Part shown: positions 2,743 through 60,599 of the stretch, one piece after another | Position numbering within the stretch: the stretch's first letter is position 1 | How the letters are laid out: each line of letters starts with the position of its first letter | DNA from: a virus | Virus record (IMG/VR): IMGVR_UViG_3300035138_000104 | Location: 1 to 60,599 of that record | DNA length: 60,599 bases | Reading direction: 5' to 3' (one strand) | Made by a program: the position numbers and the translations under genes | Notes under the pieces: model-generated | The model's database searches: none | What the model was told of the DNA's origin: nothing | The model's input: only the letters and a program-made list of their open reading frames with translations

Positions 2743-2750
2743 TACCAAAC

Positions 2751-3759: not shown

Positions 3760-3765
3760 AACGAT

Positions 3766-3795: not shown

Positions 3796-3812
3796 CTATT
3801 TTTTTAAATTTT

Positions 3813-4010: not shown

Positions 4011-4968
4011 TAACTTCCTCCTTAACTTCTTCACCTTCAAACATGTTTTTTATTGTATCAATAGTCTTGTTATCATCTTTAATCTCTGGATATTCACGTC
4101 TTAAAGCTGTTTCAACTTTATAGCGTAAATGTGGATAAATCTTTAAAAAATACTGCCACCCCTTTTGATGTTGTGTTTCAATATGAGCTTCATTAGTCAA
4201 ATGCAACCAATTAGATGCGTAATCTTTTTCTTCTTCAGGATTGCCACCCATGCCACGTGCCTTAATATGACACAGTTGTCCAGATCCATCACCTATAAAA
4301 TCGCCAGTAGCTTCACAAATAGGATTTAATGATTTATATTCTGCCCCTGTAAGAACATCATCATGCAATATAATTTTATTATCATTTAATGATTGTTTCC
4401 ACTTTAGCCAATAATCATGTATTTCACCTGGATTTGTAACTGTAACACCATTGACTGACATCCGGTTAAATATCATATCAACCCATTCTGCCATTTGTTT
4501 TGTATTAAACTTACTGGTAGTCAAAATACACGTAATTATTTTTTCGCCTTCTTTATAATCCTTGACATCTATTACTCTATATTCCGACTTAAACATATTA
4601 AGAAGCTCACTTTTAATTCTCATTTCAAATCTAGGTGCTTCACTTTCTAGATCATTTTCGTAAAGTTCCTGGCTGGTAAACATATGCTCCTTACTCCCTT
4701 TCATACCAGCATTTAGCTCATTTGATTCTATCTCGTATAATGCCCACATAAGATTATTTTGATCAAGTGTTCGTTTTTTATAATGTATTTCTATTGAAAC
4801 ATCGATATCTTTTAATTCTTCTTTTTTATTCTGTATCTGGTCTAATTTATTTAATACAATAGCCATCTTTTTATAGTAGCTTTCTTTTGGTTTTAATAGT
4901 AAATATCCTTTTGGTATATTGGATTGCCAGTCCTTCGACCAATTTGCAACAAACTTAATTAATGCCAT
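4003..4968 (-). CDS. NinB-like recombination protein fused to an HNH nuclease domain
   Basis: KRTLDQNNLMWALYEIESNEL resembles the lambda NinB RSLDQNRKLWACLGDV segment. The C terminus CHIKARGMGG...NWLHLTNEAHIETQH is HNH-like. ATG at 4968 follows GGAGG. Confidence 0.6.
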   Translation of the reverse strand: MALIKFVANWSKDWQSNIPKGYLLLKPKESYYKKMAIVLNKLDQIQNKKEELKDIDVSIEIHYKKRTLDQNNLMWALYEIESNELNAGMKGSKEHMFTSQELYENDLESEAPRFEMRIKSELLNMFKSEYRVIDVKDYKEGEKIITCILTTSKFNTKQMAEWVDMIFNRMSVNGVTVTNPGEIHDYWLKWKQSLNDNKIILHDDVLTGAEYKSLNPICEATGDFIGDGSGQLCHIKARGMGGNPEEEKDYASNWLHLTNEAHIETQHQKGWQYFLKIYPHLRYKVETALRREYPEIKDDNKTIDTIKNMFEGEEVKEEVNG

Positions 4969-8780: not shown

Positions 8781-8970
8781 TGTTTTTTTATATATTTTGT
8801 CAATTTTTTTAATATTTTTTAAAAATTTTAATAAAAAGCAAATTTGCTCAAAATAAGCATTCTAAGCGTCCAAAATATTGTTTTGCCTTTCATTCTATAT
8901 AAACATATATTCCGTTTAAAATAACCCCTAAAATTTAGCGCTGAGAGCATTTTAAAAGCATAGCTGGAAT

Positions 8971-9001
8971 AAAAAAAGCGTCCTTGAATTAACAAAGACG
9001 C
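8971..9001 (-). terminator. Rho-independent terminator closing the late/lysis operon
   Basis: Minus strand GCGUCuUUG-UUAAUU-CAAgGACGC followed by U7 (8977-8971). Confidence 0.65.
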
Positions 9002-24245: not shown

Positions 24246-24262
24246 TTAATATCTCCTTATTT

Positions 24263-24289
24263 CAAAAAGAGGGGATTTTGTCCCCTCTT
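24263..24289 (-). terminator. Rho-independent terminator after the major capsid gene
   Basis: Minus strand AGAGGGGA-CAAAA-UCCCCUCU followed by UUUUU (8-bp G/C-rich stem 24268-24275 with 24281-24288). Confidence 0.75.
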
Positions 24290-26957: not shown

Positions 26958-26989
26958 GTTCTTATATTAAAATATTGAAGGAAGTAAAC

Positions 26990-27145
26990 ATGGCATTTGA
27001 TTATATTAATTTATTGATTAAAGATGAAATCTTATATGTTAAAATACTTGAGAAATATTTTGAAGAAAAAAAACATAATAGGAAAATAACTAAAATTGAT
27101 ATTGTCGAAAGATTATTAAGAAAAGGATTGGAAAATGAAAAATAA
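26990..27145 (+). CDS. Small protein (51 aa)
   Basis: First ORF after the consensus promoter and SD. Its stop overlaps the next start. Confidence 0.55.
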   Translation: MAFDYINLLIKDEILYVKILEKYFEEKKHNRKITKIDIVERLLRKGLENEK

Positions 27146-27389
27146 ATCAATACCACCTAAACCAATCCCAACTCCAATTAGAAAAGTTAATGAAGGATTT
27201 AATTTCAATTGGATTAGAGCATTTATTAAAAAAATAACCACTCCAAAATCTAAAAGAAAATTAGTATCTGTCAAAGAAGTAAAAGAGATTTATAAAGGAT
27301 TTTCCAAAAATCAGCTTATAAGAGTAATAATCCGACTATCTCAAGAAAATGCCATGTTAAGATATAAAAAAGGAATGATAAGAAAATGA
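27135..27389 (+). CDS. Basic small protein (84 aa)
   Basis: Translationally coupled ORF. The N terminus is Lys/Pro-rich. Confidence 0.6.
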   Translation: MKNKSIPPKPIPTPIRKVNEGFNFNWIRAFIKKITTPKSKRKLVSVKEVKEIYKGFSKNQLIRVIIRLSQENAMLRYKKGMIRK

Positions 27390-27559
27390 TCAAATATTTT
27401 TTAAAAAGGCAAAACGATGCCGAATTTAAAGAAGTTGCCAGATCTGAATATCTTCATCATCAAAAACAAGCTGGATATTATGTTGGTAACATGATATTAC
27501 GCAGCTTCCATGATAGAGACCAAAATATATCAGGCCAGGCAAAGGAAATTAAAAAATGA
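27386..27559 (+). CDS. Small protein (57 aa)
   Basis: ATGA overlap with the upstream stop. It is below the track cutoff. Confidence 0.5.
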   Translation: MIKYFLKRQNDAEFKEVARSEYLHHQKQAGYYVGNMILRSFHDRDQNISGQAKEIKK

Positions 27560-27645
27560 AAGATAACACCGCCTTTGCAATTTTTATTATAGTTATGTTT
27601 ATCATAGCTGTTTTATTATTATTTTTAGCAAAAATATTATTTTAA
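27556..27645 (+). CDS. Hydrophobic mini-protein (29 aa)
   Basis: ATGA overlap. MKDNTAFAIFIIVMFIIAVLLLFLAKILF is a single TM helix. Confidence 0.4.
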   Translation: MKDNTAFAIFIIVMFIIAVLLLFLAKILF

Positions 27646-27657
27646 GGAGAAATAAAA

Positions 27658-27957
27658 ATGAAAGCAATCAAAATTGATAAATACCAAAAAGTAGGTGACT
27701 TGGAATATTCAATAAAACTCAATGTAAAGTTAACATTTTGGCTAGCCGTGAAATTACGTATCGCCGGTATTTATAATCTTTTAGACGCAGAAGAACATAA
27801 ACCAATCCATAAACAAACAAATATATATCATAATGCCAATAGAATTGATACTTCTAATTTAAAATCTGGACAAGCAATTAGTAATGATTCAGAATTAAAA
27901 TTGGCTAAAAAATTAGAAAAAGACTTATTAAATAAAAGAGGAAGAAGATTCAAATAA
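27658..27957 (+). CDS. Hypothetical protein (99 aa)
   Basis: AAGGAG lies 8 nt upstream. Its 3' end overlaps the 3' end of the convergent gene 27950..28639 by 8 bp. Confidence 0.6.
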   Translation: MKAIKIDKYQKVGDLEYSIKLNVKLTFWLAVKLRIAGIYNLLDAEEHKPIHKQTNIYHNANRIDTSNLKSGQAISNDSELKLAKKLEKDLLNKRGRRFK

Positions 27958-39957: not shown

Positions 39958-40036
39958 AAAATAAAAAAGACTTTCTGAAGGATGGGAACTGCGAGCTACC
40001 CATTTAACCCTGTCAAAAAGTCTTTTTCTCGCAGTT
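39958..40036 (-). ncRNA. 5'-flank/apical-loop complementary RNA element, copy 3 (leader of the glycan island operon)
   Basis: RNA sense: AACUGCGAG (40036-40028) is complementary to CUCGCAGUU in the 12-nt loop UAGCUCGCAGUU (39998-39987). Inner stem AUGGG/CCCAU. Outer stem AAAAAGACUUU/AAAGUCUUUUU (40027-40017 with 39974-39964), then UAUUUU. Confidence 0.6.
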
Positions 40037-40043
40037 AATATAG

Positions 40044-40071
40044 ATTATACTGCAATATTTTTATTTGTCAA
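40044..40071 (-). promoter_or_regulatory. Sigma70-type promoter
   Basis: TTGACA (40071-40066), 16 nt, TATAAT (40049-40044). The predicted start is about 40039-40036, at the first nucleotides of element copy 3. Confidence 0.7.
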
Positions 40072-49817: not shown

Positions 49818-50019
49818 CTTTAGACTCCTTTTTACAACCTTCTAATCTATATTCTAAAAATTTATATTCCCCAATTAACCATTCAACAAAATCAGAAGAG
49901 TAAACCATACTATTATTTAATTCCCATACCGCAATATCATTTATAATATCCTGTAAAGGGATCTTTGTCTTTTTACCTGTTTTCTCTTCATATATTTCTT
50001 CTAATGTTTTTGGTGGCAT
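49807..50019 (-). CDS. Hypothetical protein (70 aa)
   Basis: ORF in the gene train with GGAG upstream. Confidence 0.6.
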   Translation of the reverse strand: MPPKTLEEIYEEKTGKKTKIPLQDIINDIAVWELNNSMVYSSDFVEWLIGEYKFLEYRLEGCKKESKDGS

Positions 50020-50067
50020 TTTTTAACTCCTTTAAAACTTCTTTCGATAAATAACTATCATCTGGCA

Positions 50068-50202
50068 TTATTTATTCCTATTTTTTATTTTGCTAATATA
50101 ATCATTATTAATTTTAGACAAATTTATATCACTTGAATCAATTCCAAACGGGTACTCTTTTTTAAATATTTCTATAACTTCATTCTCTTCGATTATTTTC
50201 AT
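50068..50202 (-). CDS. Small protein (44 aa)
   Basis: ATG at 50202 follows GAGGUGA. It is below the track cutoff. Confidence 0.4.
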   Translation of the reverse strand: MKIIEENEVIEIFKKEYPFGIDSSDINLSKINNDYISKIKNRNK

Positions 50203-50216
50203 ATATCACCTCATTG

Positions 50217-50492
50217 TTATTTAAAATAAATTGCATATACACAATTATTTACTTTTAAATCTGTTTTCATACCATCAAAAACAAAATCAGTTTTAATCCA
50301 TTTTTTAATAATCACTGGAGAATCTTTTTTATATCCATTTCTAAATATTATATTATTAAATCTTTTATGTTCAGTGCTTTGAACTAATCTACTATGCCAA
50401 TAAGGAGTGACTTCTCTATATTCAATATTTTTTTCGCCTGATTTAATTTTATCAAACCATTCCTTTTTTACTATTAAATATAAATCCTTCAT
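50217..50492 (-). CDS. ASCH-domain-like protein
   Basis: 91 aa. KKEWFDKIKSGEKNIEYREVTPYW resembles the ASCH N-terminal pattern (..sG.KtiE.R). Confidence 0.55.
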   Translation of the reverse strand: MKDLYLIVKKEWFDKIKSGEKNIEYREVTPYWHSRLVQSTEHKRFNNIIFRNGYKKDSPVIIKKWIKTDFVFDGMKTDLKVNNCVYAIYFK

Positions 50493-50512
50493 TCTTTCAC
50501 CTCATATATAAT

Positions 50513-50715
50513 AATAGTTGCTATGGTAAGATTCGATTCTTACAATAAGCACCTAGACAGCGAAACGTTTCAAATATGCTTCTAGGCCTGCGTTCAAGCA
50601 CTTCCTAATGGCTTATTTTTCCCGTCTATAAGTTTGTGTTATGGGCATCCAGTTGCCTACTGGCATAACAACTTATTTCTTAAGGGCGTCTCTATTCCGC
50701 CACATAGCAACTATT
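50513..50715 (-). ncRNA. Candidate ~200-nt multi-helix structured RNA in the ASCH gene leader
   Basis: 13-bp closing helix (50513-50525 with 50703-50715) around four arms. These are hairpin 50526-50543; helix 50544-50550/50611-50617 with inner 50552-50557/50581-50586; stacked helices 50628-50634/50670-50676, 50638-50643/50664-50669 and 50649-50653/50659-50663; and hairpin 50685-50688/50698-50701. The region is visibly more G+C-rich than its surroundings. The strand is inferred from context only. Confidence 0.5.
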
Positions 50716-50718
50716 TAT

Positions 50719-51117
50719 TTAATATTTTAATTCAATTTTTATTCTTTGTCCATATGCCGACCAACCAATTTTAGAATCCTTTGTAACAATTCGATTAAAC
50801 TGTTGACTATTCTTAATTTTAAAGCTTTCTTTGTCGAAATCGTCCACTTGAAAATTAAACACAAATGGGCAACAGCATAATTTCTTTTCATCTAAGTTAT
50901 ATACAATTAAATAAATCTCTTGATCTTCCAATATATATTGAGATAGATCAATAATTTGTTCTTCTGTAGGTACTTCGCCTTCATATATCAATACTGTTGT
51001 TAATTTTTTCTCTTGAATAATTGTTTTATCGTCTTTGCCATCGTCACCGTCCTCACTTTGCTGTAAAGGGCAACTTATTAACATAATACTTAGTAAAATT
51101 AAAATAAAATACTTCAT
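50719..51117 (-). CDS. Lipoprotein (132 aa)
   Basis: Signal peptide ending in the lipobox LISC. Confidence 0.65.
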   Translation of the reverse strand: MKYFILILLSIMLISCPLQQSEDGDDGKDDKTIIQEKKLTTVLIYEGEVPTEEQIIDLSQYILEDQEIYLIVYNLDEKKLCCCPFVFNFQVDDFDKESFKIKNSQQFNRIVTKDSKIGWSAYGQRIKIELKY

Positions 51118-51287
51118 TTTTTCTCCTTTTCTATAAAATATTTAATAATTTTTTTCCATTCTTTTTTAATTTCATTTTGAACATTAAGATCAATTTCATA
51201 CCATTCATCCCCTAATCCTGAACGATCTGCAATATCAGAAATTATAGCACTAATAATTTTATCTATTGTCTTATCAGATATCTTCAT
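51114..51287 (-). CDS. Small protein (57 aa)
   Basis: ATG at 51287 follows AGGAG. It has ATGA overlaps with both neighbours and is below the track cutoff. Confidence 0.5.
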   Translation of the reverse strand: MKISDKTIDKIISAIISDIADRSGLGDEWYEIDLNVQNEIKKEWKKIIKYFIEKEKK

Positions 51288-51532
51288 TCTTTATTCTCCT
51301 TAATTTTTATTAGTTTAAATTTATCGCCTACTTTATAACTTTCTTCAAAAGTATAAAAGTAATAATTTACACCATCCGCATCTTTTAAATAAACTTTTTT
51401 TCTAAATTCATTTTTTATACCCTTAATCTTAATAATACAATATTCTTCATCAAATTTAATATGCTTTTCAAAAATTGGTTCACAACTAACCAACATAATA
51501 AATACCAATAAAATAAATAATAATTTTTTCAT
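51284..51532 (-). CDS. Lipoprotein (82 aa)
   Basis: Signal peptide MKKLLFILLVFIMLVSC with the lipobox LVSC. Confidence 0.65.
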   Translation of the reverse strand: MKKLLFILLVFIMLVSCEPIFEKHIKFDEEYCIIKIKGIKNEFRKKVYLKDADGVNYYFYTFEESYKVGDKFKLIKIKENKE

Positions 51533-51762
51533 TTATTTTCCTTTAACTTTAATTTTTTAAATAATTTAATAATTTTAATAGTAAAATAAATAAGTCCAAA
51601 AATATACCAAGAAATTGTAAAACTAATGAATAATGTTCGCCCTATCTCACCAGCATCAATAGTAATCTTGAGAATCCACATAAACATGAATAAAAGAATT
51701 AAATATGCTATTCCTACTAAAACATAAAGAATACAAATAATCATAAAATCCTTTTTCTTCAT
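51529..51762 (-). CDS. Integral membrane protein (77 aa)
   Basis: Two long hydrophobic segments. Confidence 0.6.
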   Translation of the reverse strand: MKKKDFMIICILYVLVGIAYLILLFMFMWILKITIDAGEIGRTLFISFTISWYIFGLIYFTIKIIKLFKKLKLKENK

Positions 51763-51790
51763 TTATTCTCCTTTAAATCCTTTAATTGTT

Positions 51791-52543
51791 TTATAAAGTA
51801 GGCACTTTCCCAAAAGTGCTATTAGCAAAAGGATTACGTAAATGCCCATTTATTTTTAATTCAATATCTAAATGCGTGCCGTAACCTTCCTCTCGTTCAT
51901 ATTCTGTTATTTCTCGCCATATTTCTTGATTATCATCCCATGTGGCACATCTTCCAGAGTTACCAATATAAGCAATCTCTTGATCTTTCTTTATATATTC
52001 ACCCTCTAAAACAAAAATCTGGCTTAAATGTGAATATCTTATCTCTACCTTTTCTATTTTTGGCTTACCTTTTATCAATTCCATTAAAACTAATCCTTTA
52101 AGGACTATATAATTCCCGTATATATCAGAATATCCAACTTCCTCAATTTTACCAAAAAACCCTCCGTTTACAGTAATGTCCATTTCAGCCTTCCAATCTG
52201 TGCTTTTAGAATCCTCCATTTCTCCATTTATATACCTTACCCCTGTTTCACTTGTAATATACCCGTTCTCTATAGGTTTAGCCAATTCTTTATGTTTCCA
52301 TTTATATTGCTTTATGTTATGTTCTTTTTTATATTTTCTTGCTATTTCTAAAGCATTCTCATCAACAGGTAACCCCTTTCCCCCAATTGCAAATATATTA
52401 TCTTTAAGCTTTTTATTCTCTTTCTGCACTTGCGTTAATCTATACTTATAATTTCCTATACTTATATCAAACTGAAAAATCAATACAAGTACAAATATCA
52501 TAAATAACATTTTGCTTAACGTTAAATAATACTTTAATGTCAT
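51791..52543 (-). CDS. Membrane-anchored M23-like peptidase
   Basis: 250 aa. N-terminal TM segment, and C-terminal IGNSGRCATW...GTHLDIEL that resembles the M23 GxSGxSTGPHLHFE region. Confidence 0.55.
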   Translation of the reverse strand: MTLKYYLTLSKMLFMIFVLVLIFQFDISIGNYKYRLTQVQKENKKLKDNIFAIGGKGLPVDENALEIARKYKKEHNIKQYKWKHKELAKPIENGYITSETGVRYINGEMEDSKSTDWKAEMDITVNGGFFGKIEEVGYSDIYGNYIVLKGLVLMELIKGKPKIEKVEIRYSHLSQIFVLEGEYIKKDQEIAYIGNSGRCATWDDNQEIWREITEYEREEGYGTHLDIELKINGHLRNPFANSTFGKVPTL

Positions 52544-52546
52544 GGC

Positions 52547-52918
52547 TTAACTCCTTAATAATTCTGAATTTTCATATATATTGCCGATTAATTCAATTTC
52601 TTCAGAACAGCCTAAATAATCAATAGAAGTAAAAAGACTGGGATTTTCTGTTTTTTGTTCAATCCACCTGCAATGTAAATTTACAGTATCAAAAAATGAT
52701 TCAATTATTCCTATACCATATTCTCCAATTGAATTATAATATTTTATAATATCGCCTTCATATATTTCTTTGCCGTTTTTATCTTTTAAATCAATGTATT
52801 GCATTAAAATATCTTCGTCATCTTCTGACATCATATTCATTGTTAATTCTCTCAATCTATCAGGATATATCATATCTTTTGTTGATTTATGCCAACATCT
52901 AAATTTAATTTCTCTCAT
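52547..52918 (-). CDS. YopX-like protein
   Basis: 123 aa. The MREIKFRCWHKSTKDMIY start is typical of the YopX family. Confidence 0.6.
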   Translation of the reverse strand: MREIKFRCWHKSTKDMIYPDRLRELTMNMMSEDDEDILMQYIDLKDKNGKEIYEGDIIKYYNSIGEYGIGIIESFFDTVNLHCRWIEQKTENPSLFTSIDYLGCSEEIELIGNIYENSELLRS

Positions 52919-53268
52919 TTATTCCCTCTAAAAATGTATTGTGATACATAACCCATGGGCTGATATAATTTAATTGGCGCATACAACGGTTTTATTTCAG
53001 TCATCGATTTATCTAAAATAATAAGTTTATCTTTTTCAAAAGGATGCAAAGTATAAACATATTTACATGTTTCAACCCTATCAATTTCTTTTTTAACCAA
53101 TTTCATTAAAAACTTTTTTAATAAATATTCTTTTAAATCTATTTGATTCTTTTTTTGGTAATATGATTGACAAAAATTATTAAAATCTTCTACGTCAAAT
53201 TTTCCCATATTCGAGGTGAATATATTATGATTATTTTGTTTGATATGTGCTAGTTTTTTCTCTAACAT
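52915..53268 (-). CDS. Hypothetical protein, paralog of 39106..39411, apparently leaderless
   Basis: 117 aa. Shares the ETCKYVY..HPFE motif. There is no SD, and the ATG lies 8 nt after a TATAAT box. Confidence 0.65.
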   Translation of the reverse strand: MLEKKLAHIKQNNHNIFTSNMGKFDVEDFNNFCQSYYQKKNQIDLKEYLLKKFLMKLVKKEIDRVETCKYVYTLHPFEKDKLIILDKSMTEIKPLYAPIKLYQPMGYVSQYIFRGNK

Positions 53269-53276
53269 TGTTGTTT

Positions 53277-53305
53277 ATTATACGTTAATTTTGTTTTTAT
53301 TACAA
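53277..53305 (-). promoter_or_regulatory. Sigma70-type promoter giving a (near-)leaderless mRNA
   Basis: TTGTAA (53305-53300), 17 nt, TATAAT (53282-53277), then AAACAACA and ATG (53268). Confidence 0.55.
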
Positions 53306-53321
53306 GTTTTTTCTTTGGTTT

Positions 53322-53528
53322 TTAATAGCCGTTGCCGTTGCCGTCGCCGTCGCTGTAACCGTAGCCGTTGCCGTCGCCGTAGCCGTCGCCGTAGCCGTCG
53401 CCGTAGCCGTAGCCGTTGCCGTTGCCGTAGCCGTTGCCGTAGCCGTCGCCGTAGCCGTCGCCGTAGCCGTAGCCGTCGCCGTTGCCTAAATTGCTTTGTC
53501 CTTCTTCATTTATAAAACTTTTTTCCAT
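53322..53528 (-). CDS. (Gly-[Asp/Asn/Tyr])27 repeat peptide (68 aa)
   Basis: ATG at 53528 follows GAGGAAGAGG. A 14-aa N-terminal segment MEKSFINEEGQSNL is followed by 27 dipeptide units G-D, G-N or G-Y (one S-D). Confidence 0.6.
   Translation of the reverse strand: MEKSFINEEGQSNLGNGDGYGYGDGYGDGYGNGYGNGNGYGYGDGYGDGYGDGNGYGYSDGDGNGNGY
53325..53486. repeat. 27 tandem hexamers GT[ACT]GCC (G+C-rich island)
   Basis: Direct reading of 53325-53486 gives 27 consecutive 6-nt units. Only three deviate from GT[ACT]GCC (ATAGCC, GTCGCT, GTAACC). Confidence 0.9.
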
Positions 53529-53839
53529 GCCTCTTCCTCGCAATTTATTAATAAAATTGTTGTAAGATAATCAAATTCGACCACTCCATAACATTTATCA
53601 AGCACAGTTTTTGAAGTTTTCCCTTTTGCCAATTCACCTAGCCCTTTTTCTGTTCCCCATGATCTAATTATATAAGCATTATATAATTTACAATCATTCC
53701 CTTTTCTTTCAAATCTACCTATTACAACCCATCCTCTTTGTAATACTACAATTTTAATAGGACTTTCAATATTATTTTCTTGTAACTCAGAATAATATTT
53801 TTTCCCATTAATTGTTATAACGTCTAAATTTTGTTCCAT
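53510..53839 (-). CDS. Hypothetical protein (109 aa)
   Basis: AUAGGAG lies upstream. Its 3' end overlaps the start of the repeat peptide gene. Confidence 0.65.
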   Translation of the reverse strand: MEQNLDVITINGKKYYSELQENNIESPIKIVVLQRGWVVIGRFERKGNDCKLYNAYIIRSWGTEKGLGELAKGKTSKTVLDKCYGVVEFDYLTTILLINCEEEAWKKVL

Positions 53840-53887
53840 AAAATTACTCCTATATATTAAATATAATTCAACTCCTTATATAAATTA

Positions 53888-53960
53888 TAGGCACGGTAGG
53901 ATTCGAACCTACGATGTAACTTAATGCAAACTAGTATGACTCAAGCCTTTGTCCATGCCT
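53888..53960 (-). tRNA. Degenerate tRNA-like element (UGC at the anticodon position)
   Basis: 73 nt. Good acceptor stem AGGCAUG/CGUGCCU and T arm GUAGG-UUCGAAU-CCUAC. The D stem is displaced and has 3 bp (GAC/GUC), and the anticodon stem is weak (ACUAG/UAAGU with an A-A mismatch). Confidence 0.4.
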
Positions 53961-54070
53961 ATAACAAAAGGGATAAGGAGAAAATTTATTACAAGAAATT
54001 ATCATGAAAAAAAGTCTTATAAAAGATGTTGATAAGAAAGATTGCATTCAAAACTCCTTATCCCTAAAAA

Positions 54071-55015
54071 TTATTCTTCATATGCCCAAACATCATTATA
54101 CCACATATTATTTTGACTTACACTTCCAGCTATTATCAATAATTTTCCATCAAAAACCACAGCTGATAATGACGCTCTTTTGCCCCAAGGAATATCCCCT
54201 AATTGACTCCAACTTGAACCATTCCAAACATATACATCGTTGCCTACATTATCTTCAGAACAATCTGGTTCATGCCATTCCATAGTATTCTGAATAACTC
54301 CGCCTATAAGATACATATTATCATTATATACGACAAGCCCACTTCTAGCCCTTTCATAGATAGAATTTGAACTTGCTTGAATCCAATTATATCCGCCATC
54401 TGTACTATAATAAGCATCATCTCTAAGATAATAAGTACCGACTCCATAATTACCACCAATAACCCATATTTTCCCGTCTTGGTCTTTTGCAGAAATATGA
54501 TTACATCTTCCACCCCAGCTTGCATGTTCTACTAATCGAGTAAGGACTGTCCCGTTAAATGACCATACGTCATCAGCATCCCAATACTGAGTTTTTTCTG
54601 CGTTGCAACAATACCCACCAATAATGAGGATTTGACTCTCAGATATTTTCACGATTGTATGTCCAGCCCTACGGCCAAGGGAAGAAGAACCAGAAAAACA
54701 ATCCCAATAATAGCCATCTATACTATACCATATATCTGAAGCAAGAGTCCCCGATTCAGTACATCCTCCAAAAAGCCAGTATTTCCCTTGAAAATATACT
54801 ACTGCATGAGAACGCCTATAACACCAAGGATTATTCCCACCTGTATCCACTTTTTTTTGTATCCATATTCCACCATCATTGCTTTCCCAGACATAATTAT
54901 GAAAATCATTATTATGTCCTCCAATTTTCACTAATTTTGTGCCATTGTTGACAACAATATTAGATGTCTCGTCTGCAGGGAAATTAGCATTCCCTGTTAA
55001 TTTTGTCCAACTCAT
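54071..55015 (-). CDS. Kelch-repeat beta-propeller protein
   Basis: 314 aa. Repeated units contain GG(x)n...W..Y/W signatures (KIGGHNN...VWESNDGGIW, LFGGC...IWYSIDGYYW, IIGGY...VWSFNG, VIGGNYG...AYYSTDGGYNW, LIGGV...VYVWNGSSW, IIAGS...VWAYEE). Confidence 0.65.
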   Translation of the reverse strand: MSWTKLTGNANFPADETSNIVVNNGTKLVKIGGHNNDFHNYVWESNDGGIWIQKKVDTGGNNPWCYRRSHAVVYFQGKYWLFGGCTESGTLASDIWYSIDGYYWDCFSGSSSLGRRAGHTIVKISESQILIIGGYCCNAEKTQYWDADDVWSFNGTVLTRLVEHASWGGRCNHISAKDQDGKIWVIGGNYGVGTYYLRDDAYYSTDGGYNWIQASSNSIYERARSGLVVYNDNMYLIGGVIQNTMEWHEPDCSEDNVGNDVYVWNGSSWSQLGDIPWGKRASLSAVVFDGKLLIIAGSVSQNNMWYNDVWAYEE

Positions 55016-55016
55016 A

Positions 55017-55181
55017 TTACTCTCTCCTCATTATAATAAAAAAATTATATATACCAGTAATTAAAATATTGCCAATAATTAAACATCCCAATATAACTTT
55101 AAAATTATGTTTTAAATACATTCCTAGTATAATTATACAAAAAATAAGCAATAAAATCAAACATATTACAATTTTTTTCAT
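55017..55181 (-). CDS. Small membrane protein (54 aa)
   Basis: ATG at 55181 overlaps the upstream stop (ATGA). It has two hydrophobic segments and is below the track cutoff. Confidence 0.5.
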   Translation of the reverse strand: MKKIVICLILLLIFCIIILGMYLKHNFKVILGCLIIGNILITGIYNFFIIMRRE

Positions 55182-55882
55182 TTAATTTTCTCCAAAAATT
55201 CAAGTAATTCTTTTGCCTGTATTGAATCGAAAAAATTAGCATTATCTCTAATATTTTTTAACCATTCAATATATTTTCTAGGTGGCTTTTTTTGTTTTAA
55301 TTGTTTTAAATTATCTATAATACAAATTTCACATTGATTTTCTATTAAATCTTGAATACAATTATCTTCAGAACAATCACAGATTAAATTTTTTATTTTC
55401 TGTTTAAAAGTTTCTAGTTCATTATCTTTCTCTTTTATTATTTGTTCGATTGCCTGTTGAAATAATTTTATCTGCTCTAAATGCTCCCCTAAGCAAATAA
55501 AAGTTTGATCCTGTATATTGTATAAAAGTTTTTCTAAATCTTCATTTCTCAAATAATGAATATCAAACATCGTATAATTATATTTCCTTGCCTCTTCTAG
55601 CTTATCAACCTTCTTTTCTACGATACATATATCATCAACGTTTATGTTTTCTACTTTTGGTTTTTGAATTTTCTTGAACATTGCATTATTCTGACAAGAT
55701 TCGCAAATTATAGTATTATAATTATTACAATCTAAGCATTCTTTAAGTTTCGAATCTTGCTGTTCATTATCTTTTATATATCCTAATTTTTGCCATCTTT
55801 TTATTATCATATCAAACCAATATTCATTTATCATTTCATTTAAACTGCTTAATAATTTTTGTGCTTCTTTCTTTTCTATCAT
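55178..55882 (-). CDS. Cys-rich coiled-coil protein (234 aa)
   Basis: CLDCNNYNTIICESC and CDCSEDNC...CEIC clusters flank a helical middle. Confidence 0.65.
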   Translation of the reverse strand: MIEKKEAQKLLSSLNEMINEYWFDMIIKRWQKLGYIKDNEQQDSKLKECLDCNNYNTIICESCQNNAMFKKIQKPKVENINVDDICIVEKKVDKLEEARKYNYTMFDIHYLRNEDLEKLLYNIQDQTFICLGEHLEQIKLFQQAIEQIIKEKDNELETFKQKIKNLICDCSEDNCIQDLIENQCEICIIDNLKQLKQKKPPRKYIEWLKNIRDNANFFDSIQAKELLEFLEKIK

Positions 55883-55886
55883 TTAT

Positions 55887-56054
55887 TTACCCCTTGATTT
55901 CATTATATTTTTCATATTTTTCTTGTGCTAATTTCAATGCGTCAAGCGGATTATTAGGATTACATTTAGCCGCGTACTCTAATTCTTTACTTGAAGCATT
56001 GTCAATATTTCCTCCATATTTTTCTAATAATTTATAATAAGTAAACCAACCCAT
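55887..56054 (-). CDS. Small protein (55 aa)
   Basis: ATG at 56054 lies 8 nt after AAGGAG. It is below the track cutoff. Confidence 0.5.
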   Translation of the reverse strand: MGWFTYYKLLEKYGGNIDNASSKELEYAAKCNPNNPLDALKLAQEKYEKYNEIKG

Positions 56055-56059
56055 CTTAT

Positions 56060-56458
56060 TTACTCCTTAGTTTTTGATAATAGTTGTTTCCCCCCTGTAA
56101 CCCAGCAAGATTTACATTCTGGACTATCTTTAGAATTACAACTATCACAATCGATATGAAAAGTAATTATATTATCTAAATATTCTTTCAATTCCTTTTT
56201 TTCTTGTTGTAGTTGTTCGTTTTGTTTTTGTTCGTATCCCAGTTGCTCTCTTAACTCTTTTAATATTTGTTTAGCTCTTACAAGATTTTCTGTTGTGTTT
56301 TTATTTTGTTTTTCTAATGCTTCGACTTTTGGAATATATAAACCTAATACTTGAGAAATTAATATTATTGAAACGTTTCCCAAGCCAGCTCCTTTTTCGT
56401 TCAAAAATTTAAATATTTCTTTTGGTAAATTATTGTTCATATTCTCTGATAATTTCAT
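56060..56458 (-). CDS. Cys-rich coiled-coil protein (132 aa)
   Basis: Helical Gln/Glu/Lys-rich segment followed by CDSCNSKDSPECKSCW. Confidence 0.65.
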   Translation of the reverse strand: MKLSENMNNNLPKEIFKFLNEKGAGLGNVSIILISQVLGLYIPKVEALEKQNKNTTENLVRAKQILKELREQLGYEQKQNEQLQQEKKELKEYLDNIITFHIDCDSCNSKDSPECKSCWVTGGKQLLSKTKE

Positions 56459-56601
56459 TTCTTTCCCCTTTTTATCTCATGCTTTTTATTGCTAAGATAT
56501 ATAATTAGTTTATCTATTATTTCTATTTTTGTATGTTTATAGTGATGATCTAATACTTCATCGATAAAAAACATAATATTCTTTACTTCTAAGTTTATCA
56601 T
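56455..56601 (-). CDS. Small protein (48 aa), paralog of 7440..7616
   Basis: DEVLDHHYKHTKIEIIDKLIIYLSNKKHEI aligns with EHAFEGHNKHDILTIIDRLIDYLKNKKKEI. It has ATGA overlaps with both neighbours. Confidence 0.5.
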   Translation of the reverse strand: MINLEVKNIMFFIDEVLDHHYKHTKIEIIDKLIIYLSNKKHEIKRGKK

Positions 56602-56822
56602 TTTTCATTCCATTCACTGCAAAAGGCTATCTTTATATCCCCATATTGCTGAATTAAACAATTAGAACAATGATCCTTTAATTTGCAATTCTGACAAGTC
56701 ATCTTTTCTAGTTCGGATAATACCCATCGTAAAGCATCAACTTTACCCTGAATATAGCCACCATCAATATGAGGCTTATTTATTTTTTTTATTTCCTCTT
56801 CAATTTTTTCTTTTAATGTCAT
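56598..56822 (-). CDS. Cys-rich small protein (74 aa)
   Basis: CQNCKLKDHCSNC...FC cluster. Confidence 0.65.
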   Translation of the reverse strand: MTLKEKIEEEIKKINKPHIDGGYIQGKVDALRWVLSELEKMTCQNCKLKDHCSNCLIQQYGDIKIAFCSEWNEK

Positions 56823-56835
56823 AATTGCTCCTTAA

Positions 56836-57063
56836 TTAATATTCTGAATCTATCTCTATACTATTACTAGCAACTGGTTTTATTTTTAAATGTCTACTTC
56901 CACTTATTACTCTCAATATTATCCTATTGTCCTTTAACTCTATTGAATATCTTATATTATTATTATCAAGTAATTCTATTGATAGATTTTCAGGATTATC
57001 ATTAGTAAATAAAATGCCTTTATTCTCTACCATTTCAAGAATATCACCTATTATTATTTTCAT
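56836..57063 (-). CDS. Hypothetical protein (75 aa)
   Basis: ATG at 57063 follows AGAGGAGAAAUAAA. The longer track ORF (to 57111) would run into the RNA element. Confidence 0.6.
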   Translation of the reverse strand: MKIIIGDILEMVENKGILFTNDNPENLSIELLDNNNIRYSIELKDNRIILRVISGSRHLKIKPVASNSIEIDSEY

Positions 57064-57112
57064 TTTATTTCTCCTCTTTCTTAATATCCCCCTGCCGTCC
57101 ATTACAGACAAT

Positions 57113-57192
57113 GAAAGGCTTTAATAAAAGAGCCGGCCGATCGAAGTAAGCCGGTTTAAACTCTTTTACTAAAGCCTTCCTTATCTTCGATC
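57113..57192 (-). ncRNA. 5'-flank/apical-loop complementary RNA element, copy 4
   Basis: RNA sense: GAUCGAAG (57192-57185) is complementary to CUUCGAUC in the 12-nt loop UUACUUCGAUCG (57149-57138). Inner stem CCGGC/GCCGG. The 20-bp outer stem (57180-57161 with 57132-57113) contains two G-U pairs that would be A-C on the plus strand. No U tract follows. Confidence 0.6.
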
Positions 57193-57200
57193 TATTAATA

Positions 57201-57228
57201 AGTATAGCTCAATTTTTAAATTTTTCAA
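57201..57228 (-). promoter_or_regulatory. Sigma70-type promoter
   Basis: TTGAAA (57228-57223, containing the TGA stop of the upstream ORF), 16 nt, TATACT (57206-57201). The predicted start is about 57194-57193, 1-2 nt before element copy 4. Confidence 0.55.
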
Positions 57229-57371
57229 TTATTTTCTTCTTTTTTTTCACTTTTTTCAAATTTTTTTCTGACACATTCAAAACATAAACCGTCAGTATCT
57301 TTTATAAAAGTATCCGGAATTCCCTTTGAACACCCTTTACATTTCACTAAATTAAGTTTCATATCATTCAT
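57225..57371 (-). CDS. Small zinc-ribbon protein (48 aa)
   Basis: CKGC...CFEC. It is below the track cutoff. Confidence 0.5.
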   Translation of the reverse strand: MNDMKLNLVKCKGCSKGIPDTFIKDTDGLCFECVRKKFEKSEKKEENN

Positions 57372-57379
57372 TCCATCTT

Positions 57380-57901
57380 CTAAAAAATATCACCGACAGC
57401 CATCATTTTCTTTTGAAGTTTCAAATGGCTATCGGTTTTAACAACTCCTTTATAAATATAATACATTGATATTAACATCATATAGGCATCGCATTCATCG
57501 GTCGATTCAAAAGATTTATTATAGAACTTATTAACTGCTTCAATGTAGACCTTCGCCTTTTGTTTTTTTGGCAGTTCTAATTTAACCATTGCCTGCCAGG
57601 TCGAAGGATTAACCTTAATGATTTTAATATTCTGATTATATAAAGCTAACAATATAATTCCTTTTACTTCAGCCAATGCAGTTATTGATCTGGAATTACC
57701 AATTGAAAAAGGATAATCCTCTAAAAAGGCAACTTCAATTTTATTGTCCAAGCATAAATCAGTTATTCTAATATAAATATGTTGATACTTCTCATTATCA
57801 TTATTCAATTTTGTAGTTGTAATCGTCTCATGATATTCTTTATTAGTCTTAATATAAATGCCTATATGTGCCTTCGCACTATCAATACTTATTATATTCA
57901 A
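57380..57901 (-). CDS. RuvC-like Holliday junction resolvase
   Basis: 173 aa. IISIDSAKAHIGI (first catalytic Asp), AFLEDYPF, and C-terminal DECDAYMM fit the RuvC-fold acidic tetrad. Confidence 0.65.
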   Translation of the reverse strand: MNIISIDSAKAHIGIYIKTNKEYHETITTTKLNNDNEKYQHIYIRITDLCLDNKIEVAFLEDYPFSIGNSRSITALAEVKGIILLALYNQNIKIIKVNPSTWQAMVKLELPKKQKAKVYIEAVNKFYNKSFESTDECDAYMMLISMYYIYKGVVKTDSHLKLQKKMMAVGDIF

Positions 57902-57913
57902 AGTTATCTCCTG

Positions 57914-58303
57914 TCAAAATGGGACATCATCATCATTTGAAGATGAATCTTCCACATCTTTGCTTTTAGATACTGACGATAAAAATTGCACTGAATTTGC
58001 TGTTATTTCAACCTTCGATCTAGTTTGACCAGATGCCTTATCCTGCCATCTATTTTGCCTTAGAACTCCATTAATAGCAACCTGGCTGCCTTTTTTCAAA
58101 TATTTTTCACAATTAATAGCCTGATTTCCCCACACAGTAATATCAAAAAAATTAGCATATTCTTTTCTTTCATCCCCTTGAGTATAACTATCATTATTTG
58201 CTATAGAAAACTTTGCAACTGCCTTACCTGAGCTGGTGTACTTAATTTCTGGTGGTTTAACTAATCTTCCGATTAAAAAAACATGATTCAAATCTTTAGC
58301 CAT
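57914..58303 (-). CDS. ssb: Single-stranded DNA-binding protein
   Basis: 129 aa. OB-fold start LNHVFLIGRLVKPPEIKYTSSGKAVAKFSIA and the acidic tail DDDVPF. Confidence 0.9.
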   Translation of the reverse strand: MAKDLNHVFLIGRLVKPPEIKYTSSGKAVAKFSIANNDSYTQGDERKEYANFFDITVWGNQAINCEKYLKKGSQVAINGVLRQNRWQDKASGQTRSKVEITANSVQFLSSVSKSKDVEDSSSNDDDVPF

Positions 58304-58725
58304 TATTTTTCTCCTTCAGGATCTTCAATTTCTGGCTCGGTATCATCTTTACCATCAAATAATTCTTCATTGATTTTTTCCATGAAAAGACTTACATCAT
58401 TATATCTAAGTTTAACTAAATCAATTTCTTTTTCTTTATCATACAATTGTTCCAAGATCAAACTTAACTTATCGCCATTTCTTAAGCGTCTGAATTTAAT
58501 ATCAAATACTTCAAACACACTATCTACAACTATTATATCTTTTTGATTTTCTGGTGGTATTTTTTGTGTAATCTTAACTTTTACATTGTCACCCCTAAAT
58601 TCAATCAACTCTCTTTCAACGTCTAAGTCTTCCTGGCATTCTAAGACTACTCTTAATTTATTCCCATTTGCAAGCCGTCTTACAGATAAATCAAATAATT
58701 CAAAAACTCCATCAAATGTATTCAT
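58303..58725 (-). CDS. Hypothetical protein with an internal duplication and an acidic tail (140 aa)
   Basis: FELFDLSVRRLANGNKLRVVLE... is repeated as FEVFDIKFRRLRNGDKLSLILE.... The C terminus is DDTEPEIEDPEGEK. Confidence 0.65.
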   Translation of the reverse strand: MNTFDGVFELFDLSVRRLANGNKLRVVLECQEDLDVERELIEFRGDNVKVKITQKIPPENQKDIIVVDSVFEVFDIKFRRLRNGDKLSLILEQLYDKEKEIDLVKLRYNDVSLFMEKINEELFDGKDDTEPEIEDPEGEK

Positions 58726-58753
58726 TCTTTTTCTCCTTAAATTTATTTTAACC

Positions 58754-59647
58754 TTACTCGGTTAATTGCTTTTTAAAGGCATTACAGGTATGATTATAAT
58801 CTATATCTGCATGCCTATCTGTTTTACTTTCACCAATAAAAGCACATTGAATTTTTACTTTCTCTCCATCATGAAAGTTCATATGTTGCATATTAACGCA
58901 ATTATAGCATTTATTTTCATTTTTTGCTAATCGATAATGATATTTTCTTTTTACCAGTAAAAAAGGTGATATACCCATTCTATGAGCTTCTGCACTTATC
59001 TTTTCGTAATTGATCTTCATTTCGTCCTCCATAATTTTTTCCTGTTTCCCACTTATTGCATATTCCTGGACATCCATAATATAAGTTTTCCAATAATTCT
59101 TATTCCAAGACATATCCCATATAAACCACCCAGTTACAATCCCACCGCAATAAAACTTTCCGTCCTCTCGTAAAGGATACCTATAATCAACCATTCTGTT
59201 AAAAATATGTATTTCTCTTAAATGTTTCCATATTCCGTTTTCATTTCTTTTGTAGGCCCCGAAATAATTAGTTCTTGCAATAAAGGCGAATTTATCTTTT
59301 ACTACTTCCTTTGCTTTCATTACGAAAGCATCAAATAAACTGAAGGGTGGATTTGTAATTATTATATCATATTTTTTATTTTCTTTTAAAAAATCTTTTG
59401 TTATGCCATCCGAAAATGAAATATATTTATCATAAAAATCAACAACAGAAAAATATTCTTTCAAAATATCAACTATAGCACCCTTGCCACATGCGACCTC
59501 GCCTACATATTTATCAAGATTAAATATTTCTAATTCCATCAATTTTCTAGTTAAAATATAAGGAGTCTCATACATATCATCTTTTGATTTTCTAGCCATA
59601 TAATCTCTACCCATTTTTTCTCTCCAAATAACACTCGCATTTTGCAC
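58754..59647 (-). CDS. Amino DNA methyltransferase (NPPF) with a Cys-rich C-terminal domain
   Basis: 297 aa. EVACGKGAIVD (motif I) and IIITNPPF (motif IV). The C terminus carries CYNC...C...C. Confidence 0.7.
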   Translation of the reverse strand: MQNASVIWREKMGRDYMARKSKDDMYETPYILTRKLMELEIFNLDKYVGEVACGKGAIVDILKEYFSVVDFYDKYISFSDGITKDFLKENKKYDIIITNPPFSLFDAFVMKAKEVVKDKFAFIARTNYFGAYKRNENGIWKHLREIHIFNRMVDYRYPLREDGKFYCGGIVTGWFIWDMSWNKNYWKTYIMDVQEYAISGKQEKIMEDEMKINYEKISAEAHRMGISPFLLVKRKYHYRLAKNENKCYNCVNMQHMNFHDGEKVKIQCAFIGESKTDRHADIDYNHTCNAFKKQLTE

Positions 59648-59674
59648 ATATATAATAATGACCTTCTTTTTCTT

Positions 59675-59944
59675 TCATTTAATTATTTCTTCCCATTTTT
59701 TATTGTAATATTTTTCGATAATATTAATAGATTTTTCAGAGCAAAATTCATTATTATAATAATAATGTTTAACTTCATCTAACAGAGCCTCAGCCATTTC
59801 TTCCTGTAATTCTGCTTCTTTTTTGAGATCGGATAATATCCAATCATAAGTATCAAAAGGTTCACAAAATATCTTTCTATTTATTCCAGCTTCATTTAAA
59901 CTTTGTTCATTCTTTTTTATCTTTTCAATTATATCTTTTAACAT
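59675..59944 (-). CDS. Hypothetical protein (89 aa)
   Basis: ORF in the gene train. Confidence 0.6.
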   Translation of the reverse strand: MLKDIIEKIKKNEQSLNEAGINRKIFCEPFDTYDWILSDLKKEAELQEEMAEALLDEVKHYYYNNEFCSEKSINIIEKYYNKKWEEIIK

Positions 59945-59965
59945 ACTATTACTCCTTATATCATC

Positions 59966-60166
59966 TTATTTTTCCTGCTTTTCTATTAATTGCGCGATTC
60001 TTTGTAATGCTAATAATTTATCTGATATTTTATCAGATTCGTTGCTTTCTTTTAATAATAATCTATCCATTTTATTTATCTTTATTCCTATCATTTCCAA
60101 ATCAGATATTATAATAATAATTTTATTTTCTAATCTTACATTATCCTTATATTCTTGATATTTCAT
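59966..60166 (-). CDS. Hypothetical protein (66 aa)
   Basis: ORF in the gene train. Confidence 0.6.
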   Translation of the reverse strand: MKYQEYKDNVRLENKIIIIISDLEMIGIKINKMDRLLLKESNESDKISDKLLALQRIAQLIEKQEK

Positions 60167-60597
60167 ACTATATCCTTTTTATATAAAATAATAGTTTCAT
60201 TAAATTTTTTTCTATTATATAATGAAATAAAAGGACACTTAAAATTATATTTCTTATATACTTTTATCGCCGTATTAGTTAATTGTTTAACTGTATTAAA
60301 TCGAATAGTTTTACATTTATTTTCTTTCCATAAATTTAAATGGATTCCTGCTGTTTGATCTTTTTCATCTAAAATTTCAGCTTCTTTTTTAGATAAAATT
60401 CTTTTTAACTCAATCTTGTTTTTTACATAAAATCCCCAAGCTCTATTATCTATATTATCTATATTTATAGATTTATCAAAGATTAAATTAAATGAACCAT
60501 AATAATGAATAGCATCAAGAGAATTATTTACCCATGAAGTTATATTAAGCACACACAATTCAACATTCTCTATATTGTCTATATTTATGTTATTCAT
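60163..60597 (-). CDS. Hypothetical protein (144 aa) spanning the assembly junction
   Basis: The start at 60597 corresponds to position 125 of the duplicated end. AAAGGAG (139-133) precedes that ATG in the circular molecule. Confidence 0.65.
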   Translation of the reverse strand: MNNINIDNIENVELCVLNITSWVNNSLDAIHYYGSFNLIFDKSINIDNIDNRAWGFYVKNKIELKRILSKKEAEILDEKDQTAGIHLNLWKENKCKTIRFNTVKQLTNTAIKVYKKYNFKCPFISLYNRKKFNETIILYKKDIV

Positions 60598-60599
60598 GC
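60473..60599. repeat. Terminal direct repeat copy 2 (identical to 1..127)
   Basis: See the feature at 1..127. Confidence 0.95.

Follow-up and report, generated by a model that had tools for sequence, protein, structure and literature searches.

What is the role of a long, nested hairpin that lies directly behind a promoter, carries in its apical loop the complement of the predicted transcript 5' end and is followed by no U tract? This question is raised by a minus-strand locus at positions 57113-57228 of the phage DNA analyzed here (IMG/VR record IMGVR_UViG_3300035138_000104, 60,599 nt in full length, hereafter the window). The window is a closed phage contig (60.5-kb circular; bases 1-127 recur at 60473-60599) with a G+C content of 29% and almost all of its genes on the minus strand, including those for terminase, portal, a Mu-F-like head protein, major capsid, a sheath-like protein, SSB, a RuvC-like resolvase, a DnaB-like helicase and methyltransferases. 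It encodes six tRNAs, and only tRNAs reach Rfam gathering thresholds when the whole window is searched. A nucleotide search with 7.4 kb of the window returned no DNA-level match among cultured phages, and the closest portal protein from a cultured phage is that of Bdellovibrio phage phi1422 (38% identity).

An earlier note on this locus, which it counted as the fourth copy of a family, had proposed a promoter, a loop-complementary flank, a 20-bp helix with two G-U pairs, an inner stem, a 12-nt loop and a missing U run, and each of these features was recovered on the minus strand exactly where the note had placed it. The promoter is of the sigma70 type (10/12 matches in a promoter scan), with a -35 hexamer TTGAAA (57223-57228), a 16-nt spacer and a -10 hexamer TATACT (57201-57206); the TGA stop (57225-57227) of an upstream 48-aa ORF does sit within the -35 hexamer, as had been remarked. 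Using the usual distance of 6-8 nt to the -10 hexamer, transcription is predicted to start at ~57192-57194, and the earlier placement of the start, 1-2 nt before GAUCGAAG, agrees with this spacing and with the promoter-linked members of the family described below, in which F lies 5-8 nt past the -10 hexamer. The flank GAUCGAAG (DNA GATCGAAG, 57185-57192), which we term F, thus corresponds to the predicted transcript 5' end.

Downstream of this start, the 5' arm of an outer helix (57161-57186) pairs with a 3' arm at 57106-57132. Positions 57180-57161 and 57132-57113 form the 20 bp described previously, two of them G-U pairs, and RNAfold adds six pairs at the foot (57186-57181 with 57111-57106). 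On the 5' side, a UUUAAA bulge (57155-57160, from sequence and RNAfold) separates the outer helix from an inner stem composed of CCGGC (57150-57154) and GCCGG (57133-57137), which closes a 12-nt apical loop, UUACUUCGAUCG (DNA TTACTTCGATCG, 57138-57149). Within this loop lies F', CUUCGAUC (DNA CTTCGATC), and the octamer complementarity that had been pointed out is exact, with F' spanning 57139-57146. Random 21-nt flanks drawn from the same genome contain an 8-nt complement of the copy 4 loop in 128 of 200,000 draws (~6 per 10,000), and the arrangement CCGGC-N12-GCCGG occurs once in the window against an expectation of 0.01. The region 57060-57195 folds with a minimum free energy (MFE) of -42.1 kcal/mol (RNAfold; z = -4.65), and none of 200 shuffled sequences was as stable.

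With its 6-nt bulge and 12-nt loop, the resulting nested structure is no simple stem closed by a short loop, and a terminator scan of positions 50000-60599 with loops of 3-8 nt did not return it. The helix is followed by ATTGTCTGTAATGG / AUUGUCUGUAAUGG, without a U run. The element begins 33 nt after an ORF stop, downstream of its own promoter, and ends 35 nt ahead of the next SD (AGAGGAG, 57071-57077), which belongs to a 75-aa ORF (56836-57077 including the SD; ATG at 57061-57063) for which no family match was found. An Rfam search of 57000-57300 in E-value mode gave best matches of at least E = 0.3, far under threshold, to miRNA-precursor-like hairpins.

The note had further claimed that flank-loop complementarity and a nested hairpin define a family, and the claim gains weight from three more elements in the window and six in related phages. 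Copy 1 (2663-2778, minus strand) combines TTGACA (2773-2778) and TAATAT (2751-2756) with a hairpin at 2663-2731 and a U tract; its F is UCGGACAGA (2734-2742) and its F' UCUGUCCGA (2693-2701), and it is located upstream of the replication-protein and DnaB-like helicase genes. Copy 2 (39963-40071, minus strand) follows the Mu-F-like head-morphogenesis gene, with TTGACA (40066-40071), TATAAT (40044-40049), a hairpin at 39963-40028 and a U tract, F being AACUGCGAG (40028-40036) and F' CUCGCAGUU (39987-39995). Both promoters are near-consensus (TTGACA-16-TAATAT and TTGACA-16-TATAAT) and F starts 7-8 nt past their -10 hexamers. Copy 3 (3600-3685, minus strand; hairpin 3605-3669, U tract) has no promoter of its own and makes up the entire 86-nt spacer from tRNA-Met to tRNA-Leu; its F, GAUCGGCAG (3673-3681), begins 5 nt past the tRNA-Met 3' end and matches F' CUGCCGAUC at 3631-3639.

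Two scans of the window single out the same loci. In an RNAfold scan of both strands, copy 4 and two other copies are among the four most stable 100-nt segments and the remaining copy ranks sixth. A search for 8-mers with a reverse complement 20-70 nt downstream inside a hairpin yields four G+C-containing cases, all on the minus strand, and zero such cases on the plus strand of the window. A direct-repeat search found no repeat family uniting the four copies, which have architecture alone in common.

Related contigs were gathered through homologues of the portal, head-morphogenesis and replication proteins, and were searched with a descriptor requiring an F of at least 7 nt located 0-6 nt 5' of a hairpin, which in turn had to have at least 14 enclosing pairs, an energy of -18 kcal/mol or lower and a 10-16 nt apical loop with the complement of F in reverse orientation. 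Copy 4 falls within this descriptor, on the gene strand. In the low-GC clade the descriptor matches family members only, all of them on the gene strand, and antisense matches are zero; a looser version (6-nt F, -15 kcal/mol) adds only AT-rich or coding-region matches. Six further distinct elements are present in these related low-GC phage contigs, bringing the total to 10. One, with F AAACCAUGA, is identical in three contigs (L003, L060 and L062); a second, with F AAACCAUCA, is found in L004 and L008 (L004a) and differs from that of L003 by one compensated G-C to C-G change; the same two contigs carry another element with F CCUUGCU (L004b). The L061 element (F AACUGCGA), which lacks a clear inner stem, has an F equal to that of window copy 2 over 8 nt; L073 contributes F AAAGCGUUAC, with a 10-nt complement; and L071, a different low-GC phage, contributes F ACAGGUUAC in an element placed after another hairpin and without a promoter at the right distance.

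Several of these elements are positional orthologues, and in each orthologous set F and F' have changed while their complementarity has been retained. After the Mu-F gene, window copy 2, L061, the L003-type element and L004a occupy the same position, with F reading AACUGCGAG in the window and L061, AAACCAUGA in L003, L060 and L062, and AAACCAUCA in L004. After SSB-RuvC, window copy 4 (GAUCGAAG) corresponds to L004b (CCUUGCU), and before the replication gene copy 1 (UCGGACAGA) corresponds to L073 (AAAGCGUUAC).

Beyond this clade the element was not recovered. In distant portal relatives (43-57% identity, G+C 0.36-0.59) descriptor matches proved to be noise, falling equally on both strands and inside genes, and the phi1422 genome, which is without the element, likewise yields coding-region noise only. 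A scan of IMG/VR for the helix foot of copy 2 (AAAAGACTTTTT...AGTCTTTTTT) found a near-identical contig as its sole member. A site at L015 +4267 is a possible distant analogue. As judged from these searches, the distribution of the element so far appears to be a small group of uncultured low-G+C phages.

The shared layout can be described as follows. F (7-10 nt) is joined through a linker of 0-3 nt to an outer helix of 14-26 bp with an A- or purine-rich 5' foot, followed by an internal loop or bulge, an inner stem of 3-6 bp and an apical loop of 12-14 nt, in which 1-4 mostly U-rich nucleotides precede F' (7-10 nt) and 0-1 nt follow it. A run of 6-8 T at the 3' foot of the hairpin is present in nine of the 10 distinct elements, copy 4 being the exception, and, copy 4 aside, the next SD and start codon, or the next tRNA, lies ~10-25 nt from the U tract. 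Copy 4 deviates from the family also in its AAGG/CCUU-type helix foot and in the distance to the next start codon, ~50 nt past the helix. In eight of the 10 elements F begins 5-8 nt past the -10 hexamer of a promoter close to the TTGACA/TATAAT consensus, that is, at the predicted transcript start; the two elements away from a transcription start are copy 3, after a tRNA, and L071, after a hairpin.

The 10 distinct elements carry nine different F/F' sequences, which allows the pairing to be assessed by covariation. Aligned with MAFFT, nine elements have only a few invariant columns, most of which fall in the T run, and F and F' vary fully; because MAFFT alignments are not structural, pair counts and shuffles were computed by script. 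Among the first eight elements, 68 of 72 F:F' cells are Watson-Crick pairs, one is G-U and three are mismatches, with 3-4 pair types per column; the two elements added later pair at 10/10 and 9/9 positions. When the eight elements were cross-tested, each F paired with its own partner at 8-9 of 9 positions and with other partners at 1-7 of 9, near-identical ortholog pairs excepted, and permuting F and F' among them reached the observed total in 2 of 20,000 trials. Random genomic flanks match the loop in fewer than 1 in 1,000 draws for complements of 8-10 nt and in ~3 in 1,000 for L004b, with its 7-nt complement; for copies 1-3, with complements of 9 nt, the few matches are about what would be expected from draws that overlap the true site. 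Ordinary terminators of the same genome (~24255-24283, 8970-8998 and 161-217) have simple loops and lack a flank match. On this comparative evidence the F:F' complementarity is under selection, and the elements are an RNA family as defined by that complementarity together with the nested hairpin.

The helices also identify the strand on which the structure operates. Across the 10 elements they contain 244 pairs, 35 of them G-U, and a single A-C mismatch; since G-U pairs so outnumber A-C mismatches, the structure is that of a sense-strand RNA, and a DNA-level cruciform or an antisense-strand function is ruled out. A leader peptide was considered and rejected, the ATG in the L003 F not being conserved in L004. 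The F and F' 9-mers have no further exact match in the genome, nor was a second site found near downstream start codons or ribosome-binding sites. Taken together, the 10 elements with nine F/F' sequences, the preference for the own partner, the G-U bias and the lack of an Rfam family bear out the proposal that these are a structured RNA class. The accompanying proposal, that the shared feature of the family is not intrinsic termination, fares less well: it draws support from copy 4, which is without a U run, but is only partly supported because a T run is retained in nine of the 10 elements, including L004b, which is orthologous in position to copy 4 and has T8.

Two alternative folds are available to each element. 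When only the RNA up to F' is folded, all 10 elements give the F:F' hairpin as MFE structure (-10 to -22 kcal/mol), to which 2-4 further pairs, formed by the A-rich linker with the U-rich loop segment, are often added; on its own, the F:F' duplex accounts for -9 to -15 kcal/mol. Once the full-length element is folded, the MFE structure becomes the long hairpin (-22 to -41 kcal/mol), which leaves F as a free single-stranded 5' tail of 8-13 nt. Simple geometry suggests that the F:F' helix and the complete outer hairpin would be mutually exclusive within one molecule, given that a linker of 0-3 nt cannot bridge a helix of 25-30 bp.

Our preferred reading of these observations is that the element may be a self-contained, cis-acting switch in the leader that holds back or prevents formation of its own terminator-like hairpin. 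In the nascent RNA, the first 8-10 nt (F) would pair with F', which is made ~40 nt further on, ahead of the 3' half of the hairpin. The resulting duplex could then stack on the inner stem as an H-type pseudoknot, in which F' would continue the 3' strand of the inner stem, a 3-4 nt segment would cross the deep groove and the 5' arm would serve as a long connecting loop; alternatively, it could gain 2-4 more pairs with the U-rich nucleotides on the 5' side of the loop. Either form would use the 5' arm of the outer helix as a connecting strand and, since the U tract directly adjoins the outer helix at its lower half, closure of the hairpin foot would have to wait until F:F' opens, with the U tract directly next in nine of the 10 elements. 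Opening would presumably be spontaneous or driven by strain, there being no strand in direct competition for F or F', and since F' leaves the polymerase ~10 nt of synthesis before the U tract is complete, the polymerase would often pass. RNA polymerase would thus tend to run past the terminator-like site, a form of built-in anti-termination or attenuation, after which the RNA would relax to the more stable long hairpin, which would remain close to the 5' terminus of the message and might stabilise the transcript or be processed there. In copy 4 the U tract would have been lost or would never have been present, leaving only the folding switch and the 5' hairpin.

Read-through is what the downstream genes need, their starts lying ~10-25 nt from the U tract and copy 3 lying inside a tRNA operon, and the element probably controls, according to this model, whether transcription continues into the next genes. 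We nevertheless assign the switch model a probability of only about 0.4, because copy 4 is without a U tract, no input signal is evident and two elements are off the start site. The first of these points means that anti-termination cannot be the present role of copy 4; the second arises because F is part of every transcript that crosses the element. It is hard to see the use of a terminator that always defeats itself, unless its hairpin serves some further purpose. In several elements, most of the T run is base-paired to the A-rich 5' foot, and part of what looks like a U tract may therefore be no more than the 3' side of a helix foot rich in A and U.

An alternative that we consider unlikely is protection of the 5' end, an idea that the earlier note implies. 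Here, F:F' would bury the 5' terminus at the inner-stem junction, or the long hairpin would block an RNase J-type 5'-to-3' exonuclease, and the downstream message would be stabilised. Stem-loops and polypurine stabilisers at 5' ends are known from Gram-positive bacteria and their phages, as in ermC, SP82 and the cryIIIA STAB-SD. The position of F at the predicted +1 in eight of the 10 elements is in keeping with such a role, as are the very stable hairpins 8-13 nt from the 5' end and the F' segment that directly adjoins the inner stem on its 3' strand (L3 = 0-1 nt), on which the first nucleotide of F would be expected to stack; copy 4, moreover, has kept both F:F' and the hairpin without a terminator. 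In the favoured fold, however, F is a free tail, whereas known protective 5' hairpins need almost none, and no three-way junction or ring of the flavivirus xrRNA kind is predicted. Protection would also leave unexplained why a U tract is retained in nine of the 10 elements and why copy 3 lies between two tRNAs.

The elements could instead give rise to discrete small RNAs of ~75-90 nt, consisting of the F tail, the hairpin and a U tail, that would act by tail-loop pairing, for instance as antiparallel homodimers or chains; we regard this origin and action as improbable to a similar degree. The RNAs would be generated by the promoter and the terminator or, for copy 3, by tRNA processing. A near-consensus promoter with a terminator-like hairpin right behind it is what a small-RNA gene usually looks like, and copy 3 fills a tRNA spacer from which RNase Z/P processing would free F, hairpin and U tail. 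The element of L003, L060 and L062 is identical in all three while the genes behind it differ, which marks it as a self-contained unit. If, as the geometry suggests, cis pairing with an intact hairpin is sterically impossible, F could still reach the loop of another molecule. Against this, F 9-mers have no other exact genome match and no second target was found near downstream ribosome-binding sites, efficient termination would deprive the downstream genes and five tRNAs of transcription, copy 4 lacks the terminator altogether, and no function is known for a small RNA that is self-complementary in this fashion.

The elements might also be "lock-and-key" terminators, in which a 9-nt loop lock would be opened only by the 5' key of transcripts from the element's own promoter. 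A cassette of this type would halt transcription from the upstream module and pass its own transcripts, which, if true, would provide sequence-addressable, protein-free insulation and shuffling of phage gene modules. For the model to work, F would have to be masked in transcripts that read through from upstream, for instance by pairing with RNA of the promoter region, and such sequestration is predicted only as weak small hairpins in copies 1, 2 and 4 and is absent from L003 and L061. We rate it as quite improbable, below the preceding alternatives.

The elements might, at a marginally lower likelihood still, be ordinary terminators, RNase III sites or recombination cassettes: units at module borders that drive gene shuffling, with a flank/loop match that has no separate function as RNA. 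Helices of 20-26 bp are potential RNase III substrates. In favour of this reading, a contig whose proteins are 96-99% identical to those of the window loses sequence identity with it exactly at the 3' end of copy 2, where divergence starts, and three different genes follow the identical element of L003, L060 and L062. In T4-like phages, PeSL units of promoter and stem-loop are found at mosaic joints (PMC4122927). Yet a by-product of shuffling cannot account for nine independent F/F' sequences with kept complementarity and constant loop geometry; in ordinary terminators of the same genome the loops are simple and a flank match is missing, and the PeSL stem-loop lies upstream of its promoter and is not transcribed from it. 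The terminator or cassette reading may also hold alongside an RNA function. Finally, abortive initiation products with the sequence of F, set free at the neighbouring promoter, could anneal in trans to the nascent F' and modulate hairpin formation, given that F spans +1 to about +9, within the abortive size range, that each loop matches the initial transcribed sequence of its own promoter and that T7 offers a precedent in promoter phi10 and terminator Tphi (PMC2952870), but this is very improbable, as copy 3 and L071 have no promoter at the right distance and T7 oligomers bind the 5' half of the stem, whereas a loop-only oligomer would not obviously stop stem closure.

If the leader switch that we favour is indeed the mechanism, the element would be a natural minimal device of ~80 nt, acting with no protein or ligand, in which the 5' end of a transcript decides the fate of a terminator through pairing outside the terminator stem. 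It would extend the idea that non-overlapping RNA structures can defeat intrinsic terminators and, since any 9-mer seems usable, would constitute a programmable part. The elements mark module borders in this phage group and may therefore matter for genome shuffling. More generally, phage hairpins that are usually annotated as terminators can hide alternative folds supported by covariation.

Comparison with known systems places the element among several partial relatives. It resembles intrinsic (Rho-independent) terminators in its stable hairpin, its A-rich 5' foot and, in nine of 10 elements, the run of 6-8 T, but differs from them in being promoter-proximal (8-13 nt from the start), where they lie at the ends of operons, in its nested structure, in an apical loop of 12-14 nt that contains the complement of the 5' flank and, for copy 4, in the missing U tract. 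In hok-type mRNAs, covariation supports pairings that are limited to a transient fold, and in the P1/P7 c4 RNA short loops are complementary to sites in the same transcript, differing among related phages with compensating changes. The genes, sizes and outputs of those systems (translation control and antisense repression) are different, and no second downstream target was found for our elements. The conserved nucleotides of a riboswitch aptamer core were not found in the MAFFT alignment of nine elements. Compared with xrRNAs, RNAfold predicts for copy 4 two nested helices only, the pairing between 5' end and loop being present.

The closest functional parallels concern transcript 5' ends that interfere with termination. 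In the pyrG leader of B. subtilis, the 5' end pairs with a segment of the terminator; this partner is a non-templated poly-G tract, added by reiterative transcription at low CTP, that pairs with the 5' strand of the stem. Our elements instead have a templated, heteropolymeric F that varies from element to element and finds its complement in the loop. A start sequence of the nucleotide-sensing kind was not seen in them. F begins with AAA in L003, L004 and L073, and its pairing partner is templated. According to the account of this system given in PMC4448216, which cites Meng, Turnbough and Switzer, the pyrG 5' end prevents attenuation at the leader terminator. In phage T7, abortive transcripts from phi10 complementary to the RNA of terminator Tphi lower termination (PMC2952870), an effect exerted in trans by 5-6 nt on the 5' half of the stem, far from the promoter (PMC2952870), whereas in our elements the complement is 8-10 nt long, is part of the loop of a hairpin placed 10 nt from the start and is found also without a promoter, in copy 3.

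In the recently described "tug-of-war" antitermination, an RNA structure located directly upstream of a terminator, without overlapping it, suppresses termination by competing with it sterically or energetically; a phage gene-32 pseudoknot directly upstream has this effect, and in the natural cases the competing structure is a ligand-bound aptamer upstream of the terminator (bioRxiv 10.64898/2026.06.17.733018). The competing helix of our element differs in using the terminator's own apical loop and the transcript 5' end, and has no conserved ligand pocket. With the PeSL cassettes of T4-like phages (PMC4122927), the element shares a sigma70-type promoter, a stem-loop and an SD, multiple copies and mosaic junctions, and a PeSL-like link to insertions or replacements between close relatives is seen at copy 2 and in L003, L060 and L062. 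The PeSL stem-loop, however, lies upstream of the promoter, and the cassettes are conserved in sequence and recognisable by BLAST or dot plot, with no flank/loop complementarity described (PMC4122927), whereas here the order is promoter, F and stem-loop and the copies are alike in architecture only. Our literature search found no description of a promoter-proximal, terminator-like hairpin with a loop complementary to the transcript 5' end; cis-acting leader RNAs with alternative folds, or attenuators, are a known class, within which the promoter-proximal flank/loop arrangement appears to be new.

The first 127 bp of the window are repeated exactly at its end (1-127 = 60473-60599), and this exact terminal duplication shows that the contig is a phage genome, 60,472 bp long, that is circular or circularly permuted. 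Plus-strand open-reading frames cluster solely at 26975-27957, where four of them encode 56, 84, 57 and 99 aa; minus-strand genes are absent from this stretch, which coincides with a place where AT and GC skew change locally.

Among the four family elements of the window, each of which combines a flank (F), a nested terminator-like hairpin and an apical loop carrying the complement of F, copies 1 and 4 have a promoter whose -35 hexamer contains the stop codon, TGA, of the open-reading frame upstream. On the minus strand, this stop lies within TTGACA in copy 1 (2775-2777) and within TTGAAA in copy 4 (57225-57227).

A structured intergenic RNA of 230 nt with tRNA-like ends is located at 50492-50719 on the minus strand, with the acceptor-like sequence GTTGCTATG... 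on the 5′ side and the T-arm-like sequence ...GTAAGAATCGAATCTTACCATAGCAAC at the other end. Its counterpart in a different, related low-GC phage contig (L071, 8216-8350, plus strand) keeps the same conserved ends around an insert shorter by approximately 75 nt, and lies directly 3′ of a family element. Neither ARAGORN nor Rfam returned a match to this RNA. A second tRNA-like sequence in the window (53888-53960, minus strand), with a clear T arm, falls below threshold (Rfam tRNA, 23.9 bits versus a threshold of 29) and overlaps the end of a 38-aa open-reading frame. In two further related contigs (L004 and L008, ~3711-3850, plus strand), a T arm and 3′ acceptor half precede the 5′ half (GGGGATGGGTAGCTCAGTGG...), an arrangement resembling that of a tRNA gene that has been permuted or split.

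Regarding protein-coding sequence, a tandem repeat at 53302-53510, with 12 in-register copies of a 12-nt unit, encodes a minus-strand repeat protein rich in Gly, Tyr, Asp and Asn. The Acb2/Tad1 hairpin domain (anti-CBASS/Thoeris sponge family) had no match among the window proteins scanned; genes encoding it are present in two relatives (L060, 630-896; L062, 1108-1410), just upstream of a head-morphogenesis gene.

A possible variant of the family lies upstream of a replication-gene homologue in L071 (9040-9205, plus strand). A small 5′ hairpin there has CTTTGCC in its loop, and a terminator-like hairpin carries the matching GGCAAAG in its 5′ bulge; this 7-nt match could be due to chance. In L015, a more distant and G+C-richer relative, an intergenic hairpin (4267-4375, plus strand; -52 kcal/mol) with a T7 tract presents TCCCAGG in its loop and CCTGGGA immediately 5′ of the hairpin, making it a possible distant analogue of the family, although its F does not coincide with a predicted transcription start.
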